This document shows, piece after piece, positions 26,281 through 56,166 of a DNA stretch of 64,000 nucleotides (positions are counted from its first letter, which is position 1; each line of letters begins with the position of its first letter). The translations under genes were made by a program, and so were the position numbers. The notes under the pieces were generated by a model. That model was not told where the DNA came from. It made no database searches and saw nothing but the letters and a program-made list of their open reading frames with translations. The stretch comes from a candidate division FCPU426 bacterium (GTDB lineage: Bacteria; Oederibacteriota; Muellerivitia; Muellerivitales; Muellerivitaceae), in assembly GCA_963847625.1 (NCBI GenBank), contig CAWKAR010000027.1, positions 224,001 through 288,000 on the forward strand. Reading direction: 5' to 3'.

Positions 26281-28675
26281 ATGCCACGCCATCCCCTGGG
26301 ATTCATCCTCGCGGTTCTTCTGTTGGCGATGCCTTTCGCCTGCACAAAAAACTTCTCCACCCCCCCTATTTCCCCCGCTGGGCCTGCCCCGACCTTGACG
26401 GCCACCGTCCCCCCCCTCTCCGACGGGCACTATTAGCCCGAGCCCCACCAACACCCCTACCCTGACCGGGACGATGTCGCCCACCTATTCCCCGACGGGG
26501 ACACCCACCGGCACCCCGACCAATACGCCGTCGCCTCTGCCTTCGCCCCAGGGGGTGCTGGGATGGCTGAACCCGTCCTCCAATCCCCAGATCTTCTGGG
26601 CGACCGACCCCAGTCCCGAGGTGACCGGGTACCGGCTTTACATAAGCAATAACGGGACCAGCTACTCTCCCACCAGCATTTTCAGCAAGACCGGGACCTA
26701 CATGTACGTGGACCACAGTATCGGCACCACCTTCAACTATTATTATTACGTCGTGGCCACAGGCACCCGGCCGGACAGCCCGGCTTCCCGGGTGGTGCAC
26801 GCCATATCCGGCACCACCGCCTCCAACAGCCTGACCCTCACCGCCTCCAATTCCACCACGCCCGTTTATTCCATCACCAATGGAACCGTGGCGGGTGCCA
26901 CGCGCAGGGTCTGGCTGACCTTCCAAACCTCCAACGTGTTCGTGGATTGGGTTTGGGGCGAGGAGGCCGCCGTGCTGACCAGCGTGAATTACGGCTACGC
27001 CGCCACGGGCATCACCTACCAGCCGGCGGCCGTGCTTTCAAGCGGCACCCAGTACGGCTTGCTCGTCCATACCTTCAACGCCAGCAACTGGGATATCGAC
27101 GTGAGCACCGTGCTTTTCACGCCGGCCGTGACGCCCACCGCCAGCCCCACGCCAACGCCGACCCTCACGTTGTCGCCCACTATTACCGACAGCCCGACCG
27201 TCACCCGGTCGCCGACGAATTCGCCCACCCCCACCCCGACCGTAACACCTACCCCTCCCCCAACGGTGGTGGCGACGCCGTCCAGTTCACTGGTTCTCGC
27301 CGATATGGAGTGCGATTGCCCCTCCCTTTACCCGCAAAACGGCATCAATGGGTTTTTTTCCACCTCCAACGATACAATTGGCTCCACGGTTTGGCCGCCC
27401 GCCGGCTCTTACTTCGTGATGTCCTCTCCTGGGTATAATTCCAGCTACTGCGCCAGGATCACCGGAACCGTGGCGGCTCCCGGGGCGGCGCAAACCTGTA
27501 CCAACTCCTTCGGCCCTGTTATCACCTATAACAATCCCTTTGCGTCCATGGAAGCCAATTTCGTAACACAGGGAAGCTATAACATCCCCTCGAGCATCAC
27601 AGGCATCGCTTTCAATATGAAGGCATCCTTTACCAACACCTGCATTACGCCGGTAGTGCGTTTCATGGTTTACGACACAATCACCACCGCCACTAACGAC
27701 GCCAATGGCGTCAACCTGCCCATCACGGTTCAAGGTTCCTGGCTGCCTTCGCCAGTGACGGTTTTTTTCAATCAAATGACCACTACGGGAAAAACGGGCG
27801 GCACGCCACAGACACACTCATTCGACCAAGCGCATGCGGTCCAGTTTCAATGGCAAGTGAACTACCCCTGCAATTTCGACATATCTGTTGATAATGTCAC
27901 GTTCATTACGGACTCCCCTCCCGCGGCGGCTAACCCCCTGCCCGGTTCATCGGGTTGGCCGGTGTCCTTGATTGATAACTGTGAACAAGGCTCCAACTTC
28001 AGCCCTCCCATAGCCAACCGGGACGGGGGACCCTGGTTTACTTATCGCGCTACGAATATCAACCCGCCTGACGTGATATGCCCTGGGGCAGGCTACCCTT
28101 TCCAAATGAGTCCGGGGGGTGGTCCCCTCAGCCCGCAATACGCCGCCCATGTGACCGGCACCATGAGTTTCCAGGGAACTACCCAGGGTTATCCGGGTTT
28201 CGGCGTTCATTTCAAGGGGGCGGATTCATGCGGGTATGACCAGGTTTACGATATCACGCAAGGCGGTTCATACAACTTTACCGGGATACAGTTTTACGTA
28301 AAGGTGGGATCAAGCACAATGTTTGGTTTTCAAACTTTCATGATCGAAATACCTGATGCGTCGACCGATCCGAATATCGCAAGTCCGACATGCCAGAATT
28401 ATTTATATGCTTGTAACGGAAACAAGGGAACATTGTGGGATATGGCTACAGATCCCAACAATTTATGGGGTGGAGATGTATACGACACATGGCTAGGCCC
28501 CGTTAAGATTCCCTTTAGTAATTTTACTCTTCCGAATTGGGCCACTAATAATCCCGTCAAAGCGATTCAACTTAATCAGGCGGTTGGCGTTCAATTTCAG
28601 GATGTTTATACCAATGGCACGCAGACTACCGCGGGTAATTTTGATATTTGGATCGACGACCTTAGTTTCTATTGA
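26281..28675 (+). CDS. Large surface lipoprotein with Thr/Pro linkers and CBM11/CIA30-like domains, frameshifted at a C8 tract (26409-26416)
   Basis: ATG 26281 gives the signal MPRHPLGFILAVLLLAMPFAC, which joins the 733-aa ORF only if the tract is C7. The protein ends FDIWIDDLSFY, as in CBM11-like domains. Confidence 0.75.
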
Positions 28676-28932
28676 TCGGCTGGGGTTTTGAACCTCTCCC
28701 TGGACCGGCCCTCCTTCCTGAAATAGCCCCCTCATGGTTTGCCTGTCGGCATAGGCTGATACCACTGTCGGCATGGATGGCCTGCCCAACATCGTAAGCT
28801 AACCCAGTTCCCGGCTTTACCGCGTTTACCGGGTTCCCTTGTTCCCGGGCCTGCCCCGAGTGTTCCAGTGGTTCCAGGCCAGCTAGCGGTGAGTTTATCG
28901 AACCTGTTCCGGAGTTCCCGGGTTCCGTGGTA

Positions 28933-29805
28933 CCTAATAGCAGATTTCGGGGTGCCTAGTAGCAGGTTCGGCGGATCTGTGGGCACGATCCGGGCGCCCT
29001 GTGGGCATGAGCCGGTGGCCCTGTGGGCATGTGTCGGCGCCCTGGGGGCATGGTCCGGGAGTCCTGTAGGCATGGGCCGGTGTCCCCTGTAGGCATGGGC
29101 CGGGAGTCCTGTAGGCACGGCGCAAGAGTCCTGTAGGCACAGGCCAGTACCCCTATAGGCATGGGGCGTGCCGCCTACTGGCAGGTCTGGGCTACCTACT
29201 GGCAGATCAGGGCTGCCTACTGGCAGTTCCGGCGGTGCCTACTGGCAGGTTCTGGGCTACCTACTGGCAGGTCCGGCGAACCTACTGGCAGGTTTCGGGC
29301 TGCCTACTGGTAGAATCGGCTGTACCTACTGGCAGGTCGGGGCCGCCTACTGGCAGCTTCCGAGTCTCCTACTGGCATGTTCCTCCAAACCCGTTAAACG
29401 GGGCGGAACCCATTAAACGAAGCTGGGCTAACCCGTTAAACGGGATGGAACCCATAAAACGGAGCCGGGCCAACCCATTAAATGGGACGGAACCCATTAA
29501 ACGGAGCCGGGCCAACCCGTTAAACGGGGCGGAACCCATTAAACGGAGCCGGGCCAACCCGTTAAACGGGGCGGAACCCATTAAACGGAACCGGGCTAAC
29601 CCATTAAATGGGGCGGAACCCATTAAACGGAGCCGAGCTAAGCCATTAAACGGGACTTAACCCATTAAAGAGGGTGCCCTGTAAGCCTGTAAGCCGGTAA
29701 GGCGGTAAGTCGGGCGGTAAGCCTGTAAGTTGATAAGGTAGGCTGTAAACCTGTAAGCCCTATCCGACAGGGGCCCCGCCTTTCCGACAGGGCGTCCGTC
29801 AGGCA
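28933..29805 (+). repeat. Modular phased repeat array, copy 1
   Basis: Blocks in order: 2x CCTA(A/G)TAGCAG, 9x CCTGT(G/A)GGCA, 10x CCTACTGGCAG, 14x CCC(A/G)TTAAACG (19/23 bp alternation), an 8-bp CCTGTAAG run, then TCCGACAGGG. Confidence 0.95.
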
Positions 29806-30158: not shown

Positions 30159-30343
30159 CAAGACGATTGTGAGGATGAGCTTGCCCTGACATGTCTCCCG
30201 GAGTTGCTTGCCCCTCGACATGTGTCTCGAAGCTTGAGCGTAGGGACAAGCCCGAAGGGGGTAGTGGGATAACGAAAGGAGAGTGAAATGAAGGAAGTCC
30301 AACTCAGGGACCTAGGGTGTACAAAGAAATTAGAGTCAAAAAA

Positions 30344-30892
30344 ATGACAAGTAAAATATCCCAAAACCAAAACAAGCTTAAAAAATATTTATTCGAAACG
30401 ACCGCCAATTTTCCAACTATTTGGCTTTCAAAAGGCAAGGAATTAAAAAAAGGCGCCGATGTACTATTGGCATCGGATGCCAATCATTTATATTTGTTTT
30501 TAATCGCTTTTTCTTTTGAAAATCTTTTAAAAGGGATTTTGATATGTGGTGGATTAAATAGAAAAATCAAATTATTAACTCTTAGGAAATGGGAGGGTTT
30601 AGGCCACGACTTATTACATCTTTCAAAGAAAAGTAATATTTCTATAAGTAATCATGAAGAGAAAATCTTAAAGCGGTTAACGAATTATTCAATGTGGGGA
30701 GGGCGTTATCCTATACCAGTTGATCCCGAATATTACCCAGAAATAATAGAGTTCCCCAAAGGATCACCTATGCCAAATATTTACTTCGAAAGCAGCGATC
30801 CCCAAACTATTAATAAGTTATATGAACGTTTTGAAAAAAATCTTCAATTGAAAATAAGATATTTAGGAAAAAATACTAATAAATACTCCTAA
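30344..30892 (+). CDS. HEPN-like domain protein (low GC)
   Basis: FENLLKG, GHDLLHL and GRYP match the HEPN helical pattern. Confidence 0.6.
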   Translation: MTSKISQNQNKLKKYLFETTANFPTIWLSKGKELKKGADVLLASDANHLYLFLIAFSFENLLKGILICGGLNRKIKLLTLRKWEGLGHDLLHLSKKSNISISNHEEKILKRLTNYSMWGGRYPIPVDPEYYPEIIEFPKGSPMPNIYFESSDPQTINKLYERFEKNLQLKIRYLGKNTNKYS

Positions 30893-31052
30893 ATGCGTGT
30901 AACGCTTAAATGATGAGAATGGATTGTCCGCGACAGGGAAGCATTTATAACGATTCGCAAAATCGTCCGTGATGGGGTCATTTCTGACTATTTGCGAACC
31001 ACTTCAAAACGAACAGTTCGCAAATCGCAAGGAATCGGGAGGTTACGAGACT

Positions 31053-31823
31053 ATGAAAAAAATCATGATTTTTATTTCACTTTATACTTTTAGTTTTTTT
31101 CCCTGGGGTGAACAATCATTTGCGCATGTAGATTCCCAGCTTTCACGCCAAAAAACAATCAACATCAAAGATTACTTTATTGCGAATCAATATCCCCTTA
31201 ATCCAGCGATAGAAGGGATAGAGGGCAAAATCGAGCTTTTGCAAGATAAAGCCTTCAAAAACTGGAAAAACCCAGGCAGTCGTAAGGAGGGTAATTTCCA
31301 AATGGGTGAGAACTACGCGAAAAATTTTGAGCCTGCGCTTTTACGGTTGCGGAATAAAGAAGGTCGAATCGTGGAAACGATAAATTTAAAGAGCGTTTGG
31401 TATGATCCCATTTGGATCAACCTTGGGAAAGAGGACCTTTACGGAACTGGACGTACCTCCTATTTTGTCCAACAAGATAATGAAATTGGATCTGGCATAG
31501 CTCAAGGCACCTATTGCCGTTATTTTGACGTGGTAAAAGGACATATTGTCTGGTTGAAGTCAAAAGACAGAAAAACTGGCAGGATTCATTCTATCGATCT
31601 TAATTTAAATATGCTCTGTGTTTGGAAATCTGTTCCTTCGCCCAATGGTAAAGGAAAGGTTATTCTTCAGAGGTTCGCGGAATATTCCCGGAAAAATCGC
31701 CATGGTATTACCCACTATGAGCGCTATGAGTTTAATGGGCATGAATGGATTAAATACGAGAAAATCGTGCATGAGGCTGTTGATTCCGAAACCGAACTTT
31801 CCGGTATCGAGGCTTTTCATTAA
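31053..31823 (+). CDS. Hypothetical secreted protein (low GC)
   Basis: GGAGG ribosome-binding site; signal peptide MKKIMIF...SFA. Confidence 0.7.
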   Translation: MKKIMIFISLYTFSFFPWGEQSFAHVDSQLSRQKTINIKDYFIANQYPLNPAIEGIEGKIELLQDKAFKNWKNPGSRKEGNFQMGENYAKNFEPALLRLRNKEGRIVETINLKSVWYDPIWINLGKEDLYGTGRTSYFVQQDNEIGSGIAQGTYCRYFDVVKGHIVWLKSKDRKTGRIHSIDLNLNMLCVWKSVPSPNGKGKVILQRFAEYSRKNRHGITHYERYEFNGHEWIKYEKIVHEAVDSETELSGIEAFH

Positions 31824-31911
31824 TTTATTTTAAGAATTATCACAAATTTAGTGGTTCGCAAATCACTGAATCCGGGGAGCCGGTTTAATGCCCGTTAGAG
31901 AGGTTAGCTTC

Positions 31912-33225
31912 ATGAATAAGTTTTTAATATCGCGGCTGGGAATTCAGGGTTGGATATGGATGATTTTGGCGGTTGCCTTCTTTTTCCCCATCCAAGGTTG
32001 CTTCAAGCCAGCGGGGAAGGTGATCCGGGTCACCACCTGGCTGGGGGAGCCGCATTTCCATCTGCTGGCGGATACGGTCAAGGACTTCGAGAAGCAACAC
32101 CCCGGTTACCAGGTGCGCCTGGAATACGTGCCTTACACCAGCTATGAGGAAAAAATCACCTCGGAAATGGCGGCCGGGACCACCCCGGACATCCTCATGC
32201 TGGCGGTGAATAATTACGTGGACCTCCAACTGCGCGGGGTGCTGACGGACCTGACGGATTTCGCCCAGAAGGACGGAATGGACCTGAAGAACGATTATCC
32301 GGGGGTCGTCAAACGCTTCAGCCCCGGGGGCCGCCTTTACGTCCTGCCCCAGGACACCTCGCCCATGGGGTTGGTCTATTACAACCGAAAGGCCTTCCGG
32401 GAGGCGGGATTGCCCTATCCCAAGGCCGATTGGTCCTGGCCCGAGCCCTTTCTTTCCATCTGCCAGAAGTTGATGAAGAAGGACGCCTCCGGCAAAGTCA
32501 CGCGCTGGGCCTTTTGCGACTCCTGGATCACCAATTGCGATAATTTCCTGTTCAGCAGCGGCGGCAATTTCGTGGACGACACCGAGCATCCCACCCGGCT
32601 GGCGCTGGACACGCCCGAAGCCATCCGGGGCTTCCAGTTCTACTGGGACCTGATGCACAAATACCGGGTGGTCCCGGCCCCGGCCGCCATCCAGTCTTTC
32701 GGGATCGGCAATTCGGTGGCGGCCATGTTCATGAACGGCACGGTCGCCATGATGGATTCGGGCCTTTGGGAGACCCCCAATTTCCTCAAAACCAAGGGCC
32801 TCGATTTCGACGTCGTCTCTTTCCCGGCCGGCCCCACGGGCCTCCGGCGCTGGGCGACCGGCGGCGCGGGGTTCGCCATCGCCGCCACCTGCAAGGACAA
32901 GGCCCTGGCCTGGGAAGTGGTCAAGATTCTGTGCTCCGAAACGGCCGTGGCCCAGCTGGCGGAGACGGGGTGGGTCCTGCCGGCGGACAGGAAACTGGCA
33001 GCGTCCGACGCCTTCCTAAAGAGCCCGGGGGCTCCCAGCAAGGCCATCCTGCTGGATATGCCGGACCACAGCGTTTATGAGCCCTTCCTAAAGAACTGGT
33101 CGGAGATTTATTATGGGAACGTCAATGCCGCCATGGATAAGGCCTGGGAAGGGAAGCAAACGCCCTCGGAAATCCTGCCGGGACTGACGAAGGAGATCAA
33201 CAAGAAGTTCTTCAACCAGAAATAA
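31912..33225 (+). CDS. Sugar ABC transporter substrate-binding lipoprotein (orphan)
   Basis: Lipobox IQGC; FEKQHPG, TTPDIL, YYNRKAF.EAGLPYP (SBP family 1). Confidence 0.9.
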   Translation: MNKFLISRLGIQGWIWMILAVAFFFPIQGCFKPAGKVIRVTTWLGEPHFHLLADTVKDFEKQHPGYQVRLEYVPYTSYEEKITSEMAAGTTPDILMLAVNNYVDLQLRGVLTDLTDFAQKDGMDLKNDYPGVVKRFSPGGRLYVLPQDTSPMGLVYYNRKAFREAGLPYPKADWSWPEPFLSICQKLMKKDASGKVTRWAFCDSWITNCDNFLFSSGGNFVDDTEHPTRLALDTPEAIRGFQFYWDLMHKYRVVPAPAAIQSFGIGNSVAAMFMNGTVAMMDSGLWETPNFLKTKGLDFDVVSFPAGPTGLRRWATGGAGFAIAATCKDKALAWEVVKILCSETAVAQLAETGWVLPADRKLAASDAFLKSPGAPSKAILLDMPDHSVYEPFLKNWSEIYYGNVNAAMDKAWEGKQTPSEILPGLTKEINKKFFNQK

Positions 33226-33393
33226 AAATATAGCAAAAGATTTCTAAACTGGGGTTGCTTCCTCATAAACGATCGCTAAAGAGAATGGTTGGCCGGTTCG
33301 AGACCAATCCAGGGAGGCCATAATAACGATGGGAGATAAACTCAAGGGTGTGTTAATTGCAGTTATATCCGTGGTTACTTTTATTTTATTGTT

Positions 33394-34448
33394 CCCGAGT
33401 TCCATAAGTAAGTGCAACACTTAGTGTCTGAAGAAGGCCGCATGAATAGGATATGCGGCTATGAAAAAGAAATACAAGCATTTAAGCGTTGAAGAAAGAG
33501 ATCATTTATCCGTCTTGAAAGGAAAGGGTCTTAGCCTTCGAGCCATTTCCCGCGCCTTGAAGAGGTCTCCTTCCACCCTCTCCAGGGAACTCAAGCGCAA
33601 TGCTCCCCCTATCCGTTCTGGTTATTATCTTTCTCATCGAGCCCATCAACGGTATGTTGACCGCAACCAACAACGAGCACGCCGTTTACGCCTGAAAACA
33701 AAACGAATTCGTGCCTACGTCCGTCGTCAATTGAAACGAGGCTGGTCACCAGAACTCATTTCAGGTCGATTAGGTCACCTACGGCCTAAGCAAACCATTG
33801 GTCCTGAAGCTATCTATCAGTGGGTTTACGCTGAAGCCACTGAGCTGATTCCTTGCCTAGTTCGACACCACCGGCGACGATTCTCATTTGGCCACAGCCG
33901 TAAGCACGCCAAAAACCATATCCCAGGCCGTGTTTCCATCGATAAGCGCTCCGAGATCGCCAATCAACGCAAGCAATTCGGCCATTGGGAAACCGACACC
34001 ATGGTCTCTCGTCAGAGTAAAGTGGCTATGCGGGCTCTCGTCGAGCGTCAAAGCCGTTTTTCCAAGTTGGGAAAGCTCAAACGAAAGACCGCTCGCCAAA
34101 TGAGTCATAGCCTCAACCGCGCTTTATGCCGCTTCCCTCAAGACGCCCGCTTGAGTCTGACCTATGACAACGGAACCGAAAACACCAACCACTTGGAAAC
34201 CAACCACGTGCTTGGTACAAAATCCTTTTTCTGCGCCCCTTTCCACAGTTGGGAAAAAGGTACTGTGGAAAATACTATCGGTCTTGTCCGCCGCCATTTG
34301 CCTAAAAAGACTGATCTTGCTAAAGTGTCCTTCAAAGAATTCAGGGCCATAGAAAGATGGCTCAATAACAGACCCAGGAAATGTTTGGGCTTTAAAACTC
34401 CGGCGGAAGTCTTCCGGCGAAGTGTTGCACTTACTCCGTGAATTCGGC
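33394..34448 (+). mobile_element. IS30 family element, copy 1 (1055 bp)
   Basis: Imperfect 26-bp inverted repeats ending AGTAAGTGCAACAC; GTT duplicated on the flanks. Confidence 0.95.
33461..34441 (+). CDS. IS30 transposase
   Basis: STLSRELKRN, GWSPE, GHWETDT, TYDNGTE, NNRPRKCLGFKTP. Confidence 0.96.
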   Translation: MKKKYKHLSVEERDHLSVLKGKGLSLRAISRALKRSPSTLSRELKRNAPPIRSGYYLSHRAHQRYVDRNQQRARRLRLKTKRIRAYVRRQLKRGWSPELISGRLGHLRPKQTIGPEAIYQWVYAEATELIPCLVRHHRRRFSFGHSRKHAKNHIPGRVSIDKRSEIANQRKQFGHWETDTMVSRQSKVAMRALVERQSRFSKLGKLKRKTARQMSHSLNRALCRFPQDARLSLTYDNGTENTNHLETNHVLGTKSFFCAPFHSWEKGTVENTIGLVRRHLPKKTDLAKVSFKEFRAIERWLNNRPRKCLGFKTPAEVFRRSVALTP

Positions 34449-34719
34449 GTTTCTATTTTTGAGAAGATATGAAGGGAAGCTTTTGTTCATTATGTTTGGA
34501 TACACGTTAGTATTTTATGGATTTTGGTTTCTGATATTTAAGTATTTACTGCGGATTCGAACAGTAGATGAATATTTAAAACTAGCCATTATGTGTTTAT
34601 TCATCATTGGGACGAGTGCAGGGAGTTATGTTTTGATTGCTATGGGAGTAGAAAAATTTGTGGCTACAGAGTTATTTGGGATAATCCATCCGTTAATAAA
34701 ACAGCCAACCACATATTAC

Positions 34720-36422
34720 CCCGGATTTCCCAGATGAAATTACCTTTCGAGTATAATAAGGCGTCGTTTGGCCATACAAACAAAGGTTTTTCTTCACTTT
34801 GGGGACCACGAGAGGGGGGAATGCAATGGGTGAAAGGGGAAAAGACGCTCTTCGGGTGGTTTTTGATCCTGGTCTCAAGCTGGAGTTCCATGGCGCGAAG
34901 GTCACTTCCGATGGCGGGTTGATTCCCTATCGTGAACTCGATGAAGCCTTTGGTTTGACTGACAGAACGGAAAACCTTCTGAGGGATCGGCGAACCGGCA
35001 AGAATACGCAACATACGATGACGGCGCTTTTGCGGCAATCAATCTACAGCCGCCTAGCCGGTTACGAGGACACCAACGACGCAGAACGATTGAGTGTTGA
35101 TCCGGCGATGCGGCATGTGATCGGAGGACGGGCCAAGGAAAAACAAGCTGCCTCCACCAGCCAGATGGGACGTTTCGAGACGGAAGTTCTCACCCAGTCG
35201 AAGAACCAGACCGGTCTGATTGACCTATCTGGCCAATGGATTGATGGTGTCCATGAAAAAAAGCCCATCCAGCAGATTATTCTCGACATGGACAGCTCCG
35301 TGAGTGAAACCTACGGGGACCAAGAAGGTTCCTTGTACAACGGTTACTTCGGCTGTACCTGTTACCATCCCCTGTTTTGTTTCAACCAGTTTGGCGATTT
35401 GGAACGGGCAATGTTGCGCAACGGCAATGTGGCCAGCGCCCACGAGTGGCGGTCGGTTCTTGAACCAGTGGTTGTCCGTTATCGGGGTCTTTCCATCAGC
35501 CGTTTTTTCCGGGGTGACGCGGCCTTCGCCCGTCAGGAACTATACGAGTACCTAGAAGACGAAGGATACCTTTATGCGATCCGCCAACCCGCCAATGGCG
35601 TGCTACAAAGAGAAATTGAGCCATTTTTGACCCGTCCCGTGGGCCGCCCTTCCCACAAGCCGGTTGTCCGGTATCACAGCTTCCAATACCAAGCCGTCAG
35701 CTGGGACAAACCCCGCCGCGTGGTGGCGAAGATTGAGCATCACAACGGCGAACTTTTCCCGAGGGTGGGTTTCATCGTGACGAACATGCGACGACCGGCA
35801 CCCCAGGTGGTGAAGTTCTACAACGGAAGAGGTACGGCTGAGCAATGGATCAAGGAGGGAAAGTACGCGATGAAGTGGACAAGACTAAGCTGCCACGACT
35901 TCGCGGACAACCAAGTAAGGTTGCAACTATTTGCACTGGCTTACAACTTGGGCAACTTCCTTCGCCGTCTAGCCCTGCCAGAACTGGTGAAGCATTGGTC
36001 GCTGACGACGTTGCGAGAAAAACTTATCAAAATCGGAGCTAACGTTATCCGCCATTCGCGGTACGTGGTTTTCCAGATGGCGGAGGTGATGGTTACCCAA
36101 CGCCTGTTTGCTGAAATCCTTGGACGGATAAGGCTACTGGCGATGGTAAGGCCGCGAGCGCCAGTACTGCGATAACCGCAGGAACACTTCATGGCTTCAA
36201 CCGGATCAACCATCGTGGGATAGGTGTGCGTTCACAACGAGAATTGGCTTTCTGGAAGGTCATTTTCAACTTTTTTGGGGCACAGAAACCCTTTTTTGGG
36301 CTCATTTCGCTGGCCTTGGGCCAGAAAATTCCGGATACGGGTGGAAGAAGCGGGGGGGGGAATATAATGAGAAACAAATTACCCGGCAATGTTTTCAGAG
36401 AAGGTCATCTGGGAAATTCCGG
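34720..36422 (+). mobile_element. IS1380 family element (1703 bp)
   Basis: 18-bp inverted repeats CCCGGATTTCCCAGATGA / TCATCTGGGAAATTCCGG; 5-bp ATTAC duplication. Confidence 0.93.
34826..36175 (+). CDS. IS1380 transposase
   Basis: VTSDGGL, AGYEDTNDA, LDMDSS, RGDAAF, YNGRGTAEQWIKEGK. Confidence 0.95.
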   Translation: MGERGKDALRVVFDPGLKLEFHGAKVTSDGGLIPYRELDEAFGLTDRTENLLRDRRTGKNTQHTMTALLRQSIYSRLAGYEDTNDAERLSVDPAMRHVIGGRAKEKQAASTSQMGRFETEVLTQSKNQTGLIDLSGQWIDGVHEKKPIQQIILDMDSSVSETYGDQEGSLYNGYFGCTCYHPLFCFNQFGDLERAMLRNGNVASAHEWRSVLEPVVVRYRGLSISRFFRGDAAFARQELYEYLEDEGYLYAIRQPANGVLQREIEPFLTRPVGRPSHKPVVRYHSFQYQAVSWDKPRRVVAKIEHHNGELFPRVGFIVTNMRRPAPQVVKFYNGRGTAEQWIKEGKYAMKWTRLSCHDFADNQVRLQLFALAYNLGNFLRRLALPELVKHWSLTTLREKLIKIGANVIRHSRYVVFQMAEVMVTQRLFAEILGRIRLLAMVRPRAPVLR

Positions 36423-36848
36423 ATTACATATTTTGGGTCATTGCGATGATTTGGTGGCTACTGGCCATTGTGATTGCTGTATTTAGGATTGCCAAGGATA
36501 GAAATCGCAGAAGAAAACCAACATCGATTATTATGCGTATTATTGGAGGTTTGGTCAGTCTATTGTTTCTAACAGGAGCGACAATGATGTTGGGGACGGA
36601 AAAAGAGCTATTTAATCCAGATTTGGTGAAACCACTATTACCCTTTTTATTTGCGGGTTTGCTATTCGGGGGTTATGCGTTTTTTGGTATTGATTTAATA
36701 GATTCAGACAAAAAACGCTAACTTGTTGGTAAGAATTCTGCAATAAGTCCAATATTCGCGGCCTTAGGCTTGAATTACCGCGAATTTGACGGTTCGAAAA
36801 TGGTTCGACGGGCTCACCAGAATCTCGTCATGCTGGGGACGGTTGAAA

Positions 36849-37007
36849 ATGTTTAAACAATTGAATTTATTAATGAAAATCTCAATATCTTTAGTTTTGT
36901 CGTTTTTATCTGTTCTAATCGTTTTCTTAATTTGGAAAATCACAATTGGTAAGGCGATTTCATCCATGTTGGTTTTAGCCGCTCTATTTTTCTTTGTGCT
37001 TTTATAA
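36849..37007 (+). CDS. Small membrane protein, possibly a remnant
   Basis: Two hydrophobic stretches, very AT-rich, next to IS30 copy 2. Confidence 0.4.
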   Translation: MFKQLNLLMKISISLVLSFLSVLIVFLIWKITIGKAISSMLVLAALFFFVLL

Positions 37008-37047
37008 GTTATTAATTTTTTATCTGTTTATAACGAATTTAATAGTT

Positions 37048-38102
37048 GCCGAATTCACGGAGTAAGTGCAACACTTCGCCGGAAGACTTCCGCCGGAGTT
37101 TTAAAGCCCAAACATTTCCTGGGCCTGTTATTGAGCCATCTTTCTATGGTCCTGAATTCTTTGAAGGACACTTTAGCAAGATCAGTCTTTTTAGGCAAAT
37201 GGCGGCGGACAAGACCGATAGTATTTTCCACCGTACCTTTTTCCCAACTGTGGAAAGGGGCGCAGAAAAAGGATTTTGTACCAAGCACGTGGTTGGTTTC
37301 CAAGTGGTTGGTGTTTTCGGTTCCGTTGTCATAGGTCAGACTCAGGCGGGCGTCTTGAGGGAAGCGGCATAAAGCGCGGTTGAGGCTATGACTCATTTGG
37401 CGAGCGGTCTTTCGTTTGAGCTTTCCCAACTTGGAAAAACGGCTTTGACGCTCGACGAGAGCCCGCATAGCAACTTTACTCTGACGAGAGACCATGGTGT
37501 CGGTTTCCCAATGGCCGAATTGCTTGCGTTGATTGGCGATCTCGGAGCGCTTATCGATGGAAACACGGCCTGGGATATGGTTTTTGGCGTGCTTACGGCT
37601 ATGGCCAAATGAGAATCGTCGCCGGTGGTGTCGAACTAGGCAAGGAATCAGCTCAGTGGCTTCAGCATAAACCTACTGATAGATAGCTTCAGGACCAATG
37701 GTTTGCTTAGGCCGTAGGTGACCTAATCGACCTGAAATGAGTTCTGGAGACCAGCCTCGTTTCAATTGACGACGGACGTAGGCACGAATTCGTTTTGTTT
37801 TCAGGCGTAAACGGCGTGCTCGTTGTTGGTTGCGGTCAACATACCGTTGATGGGCTCGATGAGAAAGATAATAACCAGAACGGATAGGGGGAGCATTGCG
37901 CTTGAGTTCCCTGGAGAGGGTGGAAGGAGACCTCTTCAAGGCGCGTGAAATTGCTCGAAGGCTAAGACCCTTTCCTTTCAAGACGGATAAATGATCTCTT
38001 TCTTCAACGCTTAAATGCTTGTATTTCTTTTTCATAGCCGCATATCCTATTCATGCGGCCTTCTTCAGACACTAAGTGTTGCACTTACTTATGGAACTCG
38101 GG
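37048..38102 (-). mobile_element. IS30 family element, copy 2; transposase has a nonsense mutation
   Basis: Near-identical inverted copy of 33394-34448; TGG>TAG at 37673-37675 splits the ORF. Confidence 0.95.
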
Positions 38103-38622
38103 TTATTCAATTTTTGTGAATTGTTGGCATATGGGAAGTCATGAATCCGCATTATTATGGAAATGTTACTGCCCTTCGGGTGAAGGCGTGGCGATCAAAT
38201 CAAGTTACGGAAATTTAGCAGAAAGTTTGAACGTAGAAAAAAATCAAATATTCCATATTGGGATAGTTAAATATATTGATTACAAAAATGAAATGATACC
38301 TGAAGGAAATTTATTTTTTAATTTTTTACATAAGAGACTTTATTTCAAAAGCGAAAGGGAATTGAGAGTAATTGCTTGGATAGTTGAACGGAAAGACGGA
38401 ATGCCGTTGTTTGAACCAACAAGCCCAAACTTCGATATTGATGATACAAAATATTTCGGTTTTTATTTCCCCGTTGATTTAAACAAATTAGTAGAAGCAA
38501 TTTATTTACCACCTTCTGCCCCTGATTGGTTACTGGATTTAACAAGAATTCAACTCAAAAATGCAAATCTAGGTGAAAAGCCAATAATAAAATCTGGATT
38601 GGATGATAAGCCAATAAATTAA
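38103..38622 (+). pseudogene. DUF2971-like protein, 5'-truncated by IS30
   Basis: FVNCWH...ESALLWKCY, GVAIKS, HKRLYFKSERELR; the ORF-track start lies inside the IS. Confidence 0.65.
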
Positions 38623-38816
38623 AGCTCAAAATATTTTTAATAAATAGATTTTCACCAAGAAGAACAAAAATATTAGAAAGGTATCCATGCGGGCCAGAGT
38701 TCTAACTGTCCACCACGGGGAGCCGTTTAAAAAGTGGGAAAAGGGGAATTTTGGGGGAACTTTCGGGGAATAAACTGGGAAATGGGGGATTAAGCAGGAA
38801 TCCCTTGTAAAAGAAA

Positions 38817-39243
38817 AGTTCTAAATGCGTCCATGAAGGCCAGCCAATTAAGCCCCACTTTCTCATTGAGAAAGTGGGGCTTAATTATTTGAAGTGAAAG
38901 GATTCGAACCGGGAGGGGTTTGGGGAACAATTGGTCCCCGCGTTGTTCGAAGGGGTACACAGGGGGTTTTACCCCTGTGAGTGAAGCGGTTCGTATCCAC
39001 CGCCCCGGCCATTTCTTCATATTCGGATTAAAATGAGTAAATGACTTGCACAGCTTTCCAACTGAAGTTCTATATGTATCCGTGCAGGGCGGCCAATTAA
39101 GTCCATCCTCAATAATGGAGGATGGACTTAATTATTTGGAGTGGAAGGATTCGAACCTGGGGTACATAGGTTGTGTCCCTATGGCTGTTAGAAGTACACA
39201 CAGGGAAAATACTTCTGTGCGCAAAACGGTTCGACAATCACAA
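38817..39243 (+). repeat. Two tandem structured units (att-like site, long hairpin, GGATTCGAACC...CGGTTCG element)
   Basis: Units at 38817-39011 and 39066-39243 are colinear; a partial third copy lies near 42195-42302. Confidence 0.8.
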
Positions 39244-42180: not shown

Positions 42181-42378
42181 AACCAATTGTTTCCGCTGCC
42201 CCGGGGTGGATAGCGAACGGCCGAACCGTGAAAGGTATGGGGAACCATTGGACCCCATGCTGTCCAAAAGGGTACACAGGGGGTTTTACCCTTGTGAGCT
42301 CACTCAATAAGGAACGGGAGTTTTCCGGCAAATGTTTTATGGTACGATCAAGTCTTTGGAATAGGTTGGATTGAAAAA

Positions 42379-52463: not shown

Positions 52464-52727
52464 ATGACCGTAGCAACTACAAAGCTTTCATCGAAGGGGC
52501 AGGTTGTTATACCTGAATCCATCCGGAAGAGCCTGCGTCTCAAAGAAGGCGACCAATTCGTTGTGGTTGGTCAGGGAGATTCAGTGATTTTCAAGACTAT
52601 CTCTCCCCCCAATTTGGATCAATTAGAAGGCCTGTTGGCGAAGGTGCGGACACAGGCCCGTAAAGCCGGTCTGAGTCGGTCAGACGCAAAGGCCGCCATC
52701 GCTTGGGCCCGGTCCCGGCGGAAATGA
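52464..52727 (+). CDS. AbrB/MazE-type antitoxin
   Basis: TKLSSKGQVVIPESIR. Confidence 0.9.
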   Translation: MTVATTKLSSKGQVVIPESIRKSLRLKEGDQFVVVGQGDSVIFKTISPPNLDQLEGLLAKVRTQARKAGLSRSDAKAAIAWARSRRK

Positions 52728-53122
52728 TTCGAGTCGTAATCGATACAAACGTTCTTGTTTCTGGAGTTTTTTGGAATGGGCCTCCAGCCCGTGTTTTGAG
52801 TGCTTGGCGAAAAAGGGTTTTTCATTGGCTAGTTTCTCCTGAAATTTTGGCAGAATACCAGAGGGCGCTTGGTAAATTGGCTAGTGATTTTCCAGCCGTT
52901 CCGATTGATCCTGTCCTTGAATTAATCAGACTGAATTGCGAACTGGTGAACGCCAAGCCTGTTAGAGGCATTTGCAAAGACCCGGATGATGATAAATTTA
53001 TCGCGGCCGCACTGGCGGGAGGGGCTGAATTCATTGTCTCTGGTGATAAAGCTTTGTTGGATGTTGGGGTTTACCAAAATATAAAAATCATGAATCCGTC
53101 AAATTTCTTGAAAAACCAATGA
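52724..53122 (+). CDS. PIN-domain (VapC-like) toxin
   Basis: VIDTNVLVS, DPDDDKF, IVSGDKALL; ATGA overlap with the antitoxin. Confidence 0.92.
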   Translation: MIRVVIDTNVLVSGVFWNGPPARVLSAWRKRVFHWLVSPEILAEYQRALGKLASDFPAVPIDPVLELIRLNCELVNAKPVRGICKDPDDDKFIAAALAGGAEFIVSGDKALLDVGVYQNIKIMNPSNFLKNQ

Positions 53123-53176
53123 GTTTGTTGTCCACGATTGGGACCTGTGGTGAAACGGATTTCAAAGGAGAAGAAA

Positions 53177-55843: not shown

Positions 55844-55866
55844 GTTCGAGTCCAGCCCGGGGAGCC
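55844..55866 (+). other. tRNA 3'-end fragment (Asn-like); att-type scar
   Basis: GTTCGAGTCCAGCCCGGGGAGCC is a T-loop plus acceptor 3' strand; no 5' half upstream. Confidence 0.7.
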
Positions 55867-56166
55867 TTTTTAAACGTTTAGCTTACTCAGCGATGTTTCT
55901 AAAGGCGTCCACCACGGGGAGCCATTTAAAGAAATTTGGGTCAGGATAAAACTCAATACTAAAAATATTTTAGAATTCCCAGAACATATTACGAATTATA
56001 TTAAAAAATTCTCTCGATGATTTGGACCTGTTTAACCCCAGCTTCTCCCCCCAATTTCTTCCGCGAAGTTCCAACTTGAGTTCCGATGGGAATGATATAA
56101 TGCGCCCCAATCATCCGCCCGGGCCGATGGCAACACCGCCCCGGAATCCCGGTGAGGGAGCCTCCC

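Follow-up and report, generated by a model that had tools for sequence, protein, structure and literature searches.

The stretch of DNA analysed here (the window, 64,000 nucleotides of a candidate division FCPU426 bacterium) contains, between positions 30285 and 39095, a row of genes separated by degenerate copies of a ~30-bp motif. Throughout, G000 denotes the source genome, so that the window is G000:C27:224001-288000; C stands for contigs, L for fetched loci, and other G numbers for relatives. Comparison with relatives shows that such site-to-site units make up a gene-cassette system. The window likely holds a decayed example of this lineage-wide system, which would be derived from elements of tRNA-targeting large serine recombinases (LSRs) and would have a short, 276-aa serine recombinase as its enzyme.

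The 30-bp site and the cassettes between its copies

The site is 30 bp long and consists of two 14-bp inverted arms flanking GA, with the consensus TTGTCCACGACGGG-GA-CCCGTCGTGGACAA and the ends TTGTCC...GGACAA. In the sites of G002, G001 and G000, sequence information was limited to positions -14 to +14. The right arm was conserved independently in G002, though it lay mostly outside the search model. GA formed the core of 70 of 75, 37 of 39 and 74 of 84 sites in three sets, where the search model itself contains GA. Covariation between the arms was absent in the same three genomes, the paired fraction being equal to that of shuffled sites at every position. Because conservation ends at -14 and +14 and the arms do not covary, the site looks like a double-stranded protein-binding site and not like a folded attC or a repetitive extragenic palindromic (REP) element. 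Conservation as an attC-like hairpin was rejected on this lack of covariation, and an Rfam search returned nothing meaningful.

A 30-bp model, trained only on 432 sites from genomes other than G000, found 64 positions of at least 18 bits in G000 and none in three shuffles of it (palindromes may score on both strands), which bore out the enrichment that a preceding sequence-only reading of the window had asked a profile scan to reveal. With a 22-bp model, 85 G000 sites reached at least 18 bits, and these lay in 17 co-oriented clusters of two or more sites each on 14 contigs. A model built from seven of the window stretches also had its best matches elsewhere in the genome. Copies thus occur genome-wide, which the sequence-only reading had taken as a sign against an array; because they are clustered and co-oriented, this scatter enlarges the finding and does not refute it. 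A 28-letter pattern with at most 2 mismatches was present in 21 of 24 further family genomes and in the single sister-family genome searched, and was found in 0 of 15 genomes of other families of the phylum, as was the reversed-pattern control (0). The exact site was also found in one record titled Candidatus Firestonebacteria (L306). Single genomes carry 40-100 sites.

The cassettes were analysed in G000 and in fetched array loci, as opposed to whole genomes, of 10 relatives; two pairs of these loci overlap slightly. This sample held 391 site-to-site intervals with a median length of 834 bp. Adjacent sites were on the same strand in 375 of 401 pairs, and the longest open reading frame (ORF) was co-oriented with the array in 356 of the 391 intervals. 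Intervals of up to 2.5 kb (n = 345) contained one ORF in 241 cases and two in 76. The stop codons were mostly located 20-50 bp before the site core. Among 65 cargo proteins of G002, taken from 130 listed for G002 and G018, there were parts of eight toxin-antitoxin (TA) cassettes, GNATs, HADs and immunity-like proteins; no Pfam family was assigned to 27 of the 65.

Whole-cassette homology was found for 74 pairs in 29 families, three pairs having been dropped beforehand (overlapping loci, a repeat). The flanks on the cassette side were identical at fractions of 0.54 and 0.64, compared with 0.29 for random flanks, and those outside the sites at 0.25 and 0.31. Homology between such units broke off within the sites. 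The downstream neighbour was common to none of 48 homologous pairs. One 1.2-kb cassette was 100% identical in two arrays of G002, and a TA cassette was 99.7% identical between G002 and G022, which belong to different genera. In the same-genus relative G001, an array (L066) sits between the orthologues of C13:99074 and C13:101840, and the corresponding locus of G000 holds different genes. The two TA cassettes of this array are kept by G000 on C55 and at window positions 52464-53157. Gene-content differences between relatives thus end at the sites, as the sequence-only reading had anticipated. Taken together, this comparative evidence shows that the site-to-site units constitute a cassette system.

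Two further observations were made on the arrays. An HflX-family GTPase gene occurs as a cassette that is 91% identical between two genera (L077:7147-8463 in G002, L206 in G022). On the 2-Mb contig C2 of G002, the listed sites (L074, L075, L081, L082, L084, L085) are oriented away from dnaA, which lies at 1.461 Mb. Two sites on C4 of G001 break this orientation, and replication polarity is not claimed.

Descent of the site and the candidate recombinase

The tRNA-Asn gene of G000 ends in GAGTCCAACCCGGG-GA-GCCA, and its 3' end (...GTCCAACCCGGG-GA-GCCA) matches the right half of the window motif. Two types of hybrid sites were found. The first joins a tRNA-like left arm to a symmetric right arm (C33:45245 and window 30285), and the second, present in many copies, has the consensus left arm followed by GCCA. 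These hybrids bracket the exchange to CGGGGA. When read in antisense, the site corresponds to the C-terminal W-L-P-x-x-D of tRNA-Asn-targeting LSRs. The 3' ends of two LSR genes on C57 span such sites, giving the tails KWLPGFNDLRTF and KWLPGLDSNW, and many full-length relatives likewise have a tRNA-antisense tail. The consensus given by the sequence-only reading is such a tail in reverse. Descent of the site from the attachment (att) site of tRNA-Asn-targeting LSRs is well supported by these sequence matches.

The proposal that the window motifs are relics of recombination sites related to tRNA 3' ends held: their right half matches tRNA-Asn, and a tRNA-Gln-type attR lies at 38817. Within the window itself the idea is directly supported for tRNA-Gln, because positions 38681-38849 and 38840-38993 match a tRNA-Gln(CTG) island and flank. 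The likeness to tRNA-Asn does not extend to 38671 and 38817, which have a CA core like tRNA-Gln, or to 39066, which has a CG core. Repeated integration at one tRNA attB was not borne out, as tRNA-Asn is unoccupied in G000 and the window mixes Asn-type and Gln-type sites. Of 20 family tRNA-Asn copies with 1.1-1.5 kb of flank, 18 had neither a site nor an LSR in it, and anchoring of the arrays at tRNA-Asn was rejected.

Just 3' of a tRNA-Asn, at L015:10345-10590, part of the tRNA-Asn 3' arm is present in two inverted copies, and these occur again at G000:C12:60-290, at a contig start. Another array on the window's contig (L022, G000:C27:121.3-127.8 kb) has tRNA-Gln-type sites with a CA core, two of which are fused directly to Asn-type sites. 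This suggests a parallel Gln-type cassette family that carries Asn-type landing sites.

The array on C61 of G000 adjoins the gene of a 276-aa serine recombinase (C61:35485-36315), which is antisense to the cassettes and has its stop codon ~6 bp from a site. The protein contains only the catalytic and recombinase domains (PF00239 and PF07508); the zinc ribbon (PF13408) was not found in the short recombinases. The motifs Y16-V-R-V-S20 and D89-R-L-Y-R93 are invariant, and we take the YxRxS serine and the DRLxR arginines to be the catalytic motifs of serine recombinases. Its structure model was moderate (predicted local distance difference test 71, predicted template modelling score 0.44) and was used for the fold class only; the best fold matches of the modelled protein were serine integrase complexes. 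A similarity search restricted to proteins of 151-483 aa yielded a short clade of 19 clusters, 275-283 aa long and 70-100% identical, with the next matches falling to 60%. In a quick tree this clade formed one group (SH-aLRT 99) adjoining a tRNA-Asn LSR. The ratio of nonsynonymous to synonymous substitution rates (dN/dS) was 0.05-0.16 in 14 of 21 short-clade pairs, namely those with computable dS, which indicates that the clade is under purifying selection. No remnant of a C-terminal half was seen in nine short-clade loci. Because 19 clusters fall into one group with invariant catalytic motifs, low dN/dS and no such remnant, the short recombinase is, as judged from these alignments, not a one-off truncation.

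Downstream DNA was available for 10 copies of the gene, 7 of them intact and 3 cut at the N-terminus, and in every one a site or half-site was located within ~40 bp of the stop codon. A contig end truncates one of these junctions, and a group II intron interrupts another. The short gene is accompanied by ArdC and/or RadC in G018, G042 and G045, and in G045 a 7-kb ArdC/RadC unit with the short gene is itself bounded by two sites within an array. ArdC was not seen among four scanned neighbours of the G000 short gene. A metagenome scan gave 2 short-clade loci among the best 80 of 565. In G018, at L229:7608-8984, a group II intron lies inside the site adjoining the short recombinase. Group II introns that target attC are known.

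Papers are cited here by PubMed Central (PMC) number. In the structure of the LI integrase, the recombinase domain has a contact area of 13 bp and the zinc domain lies at positions 16-24 (PMC3783163). The conservation limit of -14 to +14 agrees with this contact area, and the region 16-24 bp from the centre showed no sequence conservation in the sites of G002, G001 and G000. An enzyme that lacks the zinc ribbon and a site of 14+2+14 bp would thus fit each other. Deletion of the coiled coil makes the LI integrase promiscuous (PMC5499577). From these sequence comparisons, we consider the short recombinase the probable cassette enzyme.

In the proposed mechanism, the short enzyme would bind ~13-14 bp on each side of GA and cut there with the usual 2-bp stagger, and the non-palindromic GA would hold all cassettes in one orientation. 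Without the directionality half (zinc ribbon and coiled coil), the enzyme would recombine like sites with like sites. Cassettes would excise as circles and enter any chromosomal tRNA-Asn-like or cassette site. The enzyme would travel on mobile, often ArdC/RadC-bearing elements and act in trans, and for this reason most arrays, including that of the window, would be without it, as CALINs (clusters of attC sites lacking integron integrases) are without IntI. The symmetry of the site and the hybrid sites suggest GA as the crossover. We incline to the wider view of an LSR that shed its directionality half and so turned into a non-directional recombinase for cassettes, acting on a symmetric 30-bp site. 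For the bacterial family this would be a second, independently evolved integron-like system, with dozens of scattered arrays, cassettes that pass from genus to genus and the enzyme on site-bounded mobile elements.

Several observations weigh against the short recombinase as the enzyme of a mobile cassette system. The 10 enzyme-site junctions are not independent, since three G042 copies and G019 represent one junction and L123 and L124 are close. An intact short gene is present in only 5 of 31 family genomes, and no Resolvase-domain match was found in the site-rich G022, G011, G023, G006 and G016, which are 89-99% complete. Given these genomes, either the enzyme comes as a visitor and acts in trans, or a different enzyme takes part. 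The LI integrase without its coiled coil is inefficient in intermolecular reactions (PMC5499577), and no test of an enzyme without the whole zinc domain was found in the literature. No significant association between the cassette and the variable positions of the arms was found (p 0.09-0.44), and the cassette pairs for this reason do not map the crossover point. Recombination, circles or empty-site junctions were not observed; four contig runs covered mainly copies of insertion sequences (IS) and thus speak neither for nor against such junctions. For the window array itself, none of the four searched low-GC cargo genes or gene pieces at 30-39 kb recurs as a cassette in the loci compared, and most of its sites are too worn to assume that they are active.

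The array in the window

The features of the window array, and two related ones further downstream, are as follows. The p values of sites are per position against the shuffled genome, best of five offsets, with the 30-bp model.

30285..30324, + strand: array head site with tRNA-Asn-like left arm, GA core at 30309-30310 and symmetric right arm (B.P' hybrid); p 1.8e-6
30344..30892, + strand: cargo gene 1, GC 0.31, probable HEPN-fold protein by its ESM-Atlas neighbours
30914..30953, + strand: site with consensus left arm (19.3 bits), GA core at 30938-30939 and decayed right arm; p 2.6e-7 for 30914-943
30952..30983, + strand: additional LSR-tail-type site of intermediate score; 82% to C63:9340-9428, left arm p 2e-5
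31053..31823, + strand: cargo gene 2, 256 aa, hydrophobic N-terminus, family unassigned, GC 0.40
31853..31882, + strand: LSR-tail att relic, antisense RLPGFSDLRT (a C57 LSR ends in KWLPGFNDLRTF); homology to G001 starts exactly here
31912..33225, + strand: gene of an ABC sugar-binding protein, GC 0.60 (host-like)
33295..33320, + strand: tRNA-Asn-3'-like (B-type) site, head of a second array, by comparison with the G000 tRNA-Asn
33329..36721, + strand: membrane-protein gene of low GC, broken into three pieces by IS30 and IS1380
33394-34448 and 34718-36425: IS30 and IS1380, respectively, both with target duplications, inside the membrane-protein gene
36735..36844, + strand: doubtful site 36735-764 and degenerate site 36791-844 with an 18-bp insert at 36802
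36865..38622, + strand: decayed low-GC gene or genes, split by an inverted IS30 copy at 37048-38101
38671..38735, + strand: composite site in which a half of tRNA-Gln type (CA core) runs directly into an Asn-type site
38817..38993, + strand: tRNA-Gln-type attR (antisense WLAFMDAFRT), then a copy of the DNA that follows tRNA-Gln(CTG), with terminator hairpin and repeat
39066..39095, + strand: second Gln-type site, a paralogue of 38817 with CG core, followed by its own terminator hairpin
52464..53157, + strand: AbrB-like/PIN TA cassette with downstream site 53128-53157; the same cassette occurs in a different G001 array
55844..55930, + strand: two sites 57 bp apart with antisense LSR tails WLPVVDAFR and RLPGLDSN, read as a recombinase-deletion scar

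All ten motif stretches named by the sequence-only reading were recovered on the + strand, and they start 13-69 bp after the stop codons. Three of them are strong (30914-943, 38699-725 with p 4e-8, and 30285-314), whereas 36735-764 is doubtful (p 0.008-0.03) and the site at 30952-30983 had been overlooked. The stretch 38671-700 is weak on its own, and 31853, 36791 and 38817/39066 are middling on the 30-bp model, yet match other intergenic relics of G000 in BLAST searches. Heads similar to the 30285 site are present at C3:145634, C33:45245 and C45:10477. For the 33295 site, the likeness to a single other locus (C13:99137) is limited to the 5' flank, and 7 of the last 10 bases of tRNA-Asn recur in it. 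Window scans revealed no tRNA and no recombinase apart from the IS transposases, in agreement with the sequence-only reading.

Outside the sugar-binding gene and IS1380, the GC content of the array region is 0.38-0.49, compared with about 0.54. The cassette genes had been described as differing in composition, and this applies to the other genes and gene pieces (0.25-0.40) but not to the sugar-binding gene, whose 0.60 is host-like. This gene is 94% identical in G001, where its neighbours differ on both sides: the same site precedes it, ending another row of low-GC genes, and other DNA follows from the stop codon on. It is thus probably a resident gene between two arrays and not a cassette. ESM-Atlas neighbours (0.93) uphold the HEPN-like label of cargo gene 1, and 38% of one cluster carries PF05168, but the product had no Pfam or NCBIfam match. 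The 3' part of 36865..38622 is weakly DUF2971-like (E 0.007, below the cut-off).

At the right end, the Asn-type part of the composite site has the consensus left arm, a tRNA-like right arm, a GA core at 38720-38721 and antisense RLPVVD. The same Gln/Asn composite occurs at C21, at C27:124 kb and in G001. Positions 38681-38849 match, at 84% identity, the terminal part of an LSR island in the tRNA-Gln(CTG) of G001, and 38840-38993 are 79% identical to C28:157731-157583, the flank of the G000 tRNA-Gln(CTG). No gene was found in the intervals between 38725 and 39095. The array would combine Asn-type sites on the left with the terminal part of a displaced tRNA-Gln island on the right, and three IS interrupt it. 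It is probably an old, mixed, IS-riddled and inactive relic, with young arrays elsewhere, for example at G002 C2:1.19-1.20 Mb and G000 C13:6.9-10.8 kb. The AbrB label of the cassette at 52464..53157 is based on the appearance of the sequence, with no database match.

Three other features were recorded around the array. Upstream, at 26474-28675, lies a 733-aa ORF with a C-rich low-complexity part; it had no Pfam or NCBIfam match and has paralogues on C44 (81%), C42 and C57. Between this ORF and the array, at 28730-29760, ~1 kb is occupied by nested short tandem repeats with 21-22-bp and 42-bp units. An intergenic repeat with tRNA-T-arm-like inverted ends is present at 38880-39010 and 39135-39235, at 42222, and after the C28 tRNA-Gln(CTG).

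Alternative explanations and known systems

There is a small but appreciable chance that the cassettes are real and owe their movement to full-length tRNA-Asn LSRs acting in trans from visiting islands, possibly aided by a directionality factor, in the manner of tandem cassettes like those of the staphylococcal cassette chromosome (SCC). The short recombinase would then be the integrase of its own element, with the arrays as landing sites. Full-length LSR relatives are indeed present in G000 and the family, the window sites are mostly of the LSR-tail types that full-length islands leave behind, and the short gene is carried on ArdC/RadC elements in three genomes. For the older relics in the window, this explanation probably holds. 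The common site, however, is symmetric and lacks sequence conservation at 16-24 bp, the place at which a zinc domain would bind, and recombination between like sites is not normally carried out by full-length enzymes (PMC3783163). Furthermore, the five genomes without a short gene are also without a detectable full-length LSR, and nearly all tRNA-Asn loci examined are empty.

It is very improbable that the sites are REP-like hairpins or regulator-binding sites after stop codons, with genes moved by a HUH transposase (REP-associated tyrosine transposase, RAYT) or by homologous recombination between repeats. The sites are near-palindromic and lie 20-50 bp after stop codons, G000 has three Y1 transposases, and the arms within homologous cassette pairs look shuffled. 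Compensatory covariation between the arms is nevertheless missing, and the 300-bp flanks of the three Y1 genes carry, by eye, a different repeat. The co-orientation, the hybrid tRNA/cassette sites, the exact inter-genus cassettes and the link to the serine recombinase stop codon would also be left unexplained.

The weakest explanation, with hardly any probability left to it, takes the sites as dif-like and recombined by the single Xer-like tyrosine recombinase of the family, as in the pdif modules of Acinetobacter: an orthologue of this recombinase (C60:99799-100836), 54-100% identical, is present in 25 of 26 genomes of the order searched (G000 included), which is about the range of the site, and the cassette site can be written as 11+6+11, but in 21 of 25 loci the gene adjoins an unrelated AT-rich 11-6-11 palindrome of its own, cassette sites above 13 bits are absent within 1.5 kb of the gene, and the cassette site matches tRNA-Asn and LSR tails. 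The Xer-like recombinase had at first been the best alternative cassette enzyme and was rejected on its own dif-like site. The tyrosine recombinases of G000 were likewise rejected, as no array was found in 17 neighbourhoods, the majority of which are of tRNA-island or RIT (recombinase in trio) types.

Some observations on these tyrosine recombinases stand on their own. In 21 of 25 loci, the palindrome lies directly before the start codon of the Xer-like gene (G000:C60:99799-100866, L023; orthologues L024-L047), and its arm variants stay palindromic, so that gene and palindrome look like a single-Xer/dif system of their own. Another perfect dif-like palindrome, identical in its inner arms, is located at G000:C55:22827-22854, far from the Xer-like gene. 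The 18 tyrosine recombinases of G000 include none of ~300 aa, the size of canonical XerC/XerD. On C3, C4, C16, C30, C36, C52, C56 and C60 there are eight tyrosine integrases, or pieces of them, that are paralogues; six intact ones of ~360 aa and the C30 copy are 57-67% identical, several adjoin different tRNAs, and they are read as one island family spread over many tRNA targets.

The preferred reading, a cassette system served by the short recombinase, was compared with known systems. No description of such a system was found in the open-access PMC and bioRxiv literature, supplements aside, or by a term search of PMC13323075. A large LSR survey kept only proteins of 400-650 aa in its quality filter (PMC10083194); it would have dropped the short clade because of this 400-aa floor, and its LSR tables could hold unfiltered members.

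Unlike the REP of REP/RAYT systems, the cassette site does not flank Y1 genes; another repeat does, within 300 bp. Sites of the pdif type alternate in orientation. The pdif modules of Acinetobacter, which depend on XerC/D, resemble the arrays in being small gene modules between short repeated recombination sites (PMC12907356). They differ in that the site described here is unrelated to dif and the Xer-like enzyme of the lineage has a separate site.

With the large serine integrases (LI/A118, Bxb1, phiC31, SPbeta; PMC3783163, PMC5499577, PMC10083194), the short recombinase shares the catalytic and recombinase domains and a gene adjoining its att site, and the dinucleotide at the centre of its presumed site may likewise be the crossover. 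In contrast to them, it has no zinc ribbon or coiled coil, and it is paired with one symmetric 30-bp site instead of an attP/attB pair of 40-50 bp. If the short enzyme does the work, it offers a natural test of whether the zinc-ribbon/coiled-coil half imposes directionality on serine integrases. It would also represent a natural mid-size class of serine recombinases (276 aa, 30-bp site), small enough to be useful for genome engineering.

As in SCC/SCCmec and tandem SCC-like cassettes, recombinase-less cassettes lie between repeated serine-recombinase att sites (here judged from sequence), and in SCC-like elements a serine recombinase mobilises neighbouring recombinase-less cassettes, singly or together (PMC11470126). 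SCC cassettes, however, are 17-48 kb long and sit at one locus (rlmH, PMC13739063), whereas the cassettes described here are gene-sized and dispersed, in 17 clusters on 14 contigs instead of a stack at one att locus. The Ccr enzymes (CcrAB/CcrC) are full length (442-558 profile positions), as opposed to 276 aa, and the short enzyme scored 18-71 bits against the CcrA/B/C profiles, with cut-offs of 700-900.

Integrons are the textbook cassette system and are detected by IntI and attC models. The attC site ends in RYYYAAC...GTTRRRY. As the sequence-only reading had supposed, the arrays are unlike attC integrons in this respect, because the site is a fixed 30-bp sequence without these ends or structural covariation. 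No IntI was found either: 18 PF00589 matches in G000 included none adjoining an array, four of these proteins scanned against NCBIfam gave at most 80 bits on TIGR02249 (cut-off 265), and the likely enzyme here is a serine recombinase. Each chromosome has many short arrays, and the recombinase gene is antisense at the array 3' end. The likeness to integrons and CALINs (PMC8618304) lies in the tandem, co-oriented cassettes with one ORF or TA pair, each ending in a site and exchanged between arrays, in the TA, GNAT and unassigned cargo, in the many arrays without a recombinase, for which action in trans has been proposed in CALINs, and in the group II intron within a site of G018. Arrays of the kind described here would escape searches with IntI and attC models, and should the short recombinase prove to be their enzyme, cassette arrays have arisen twice in evolution, on two distinct recombinase chemistries.

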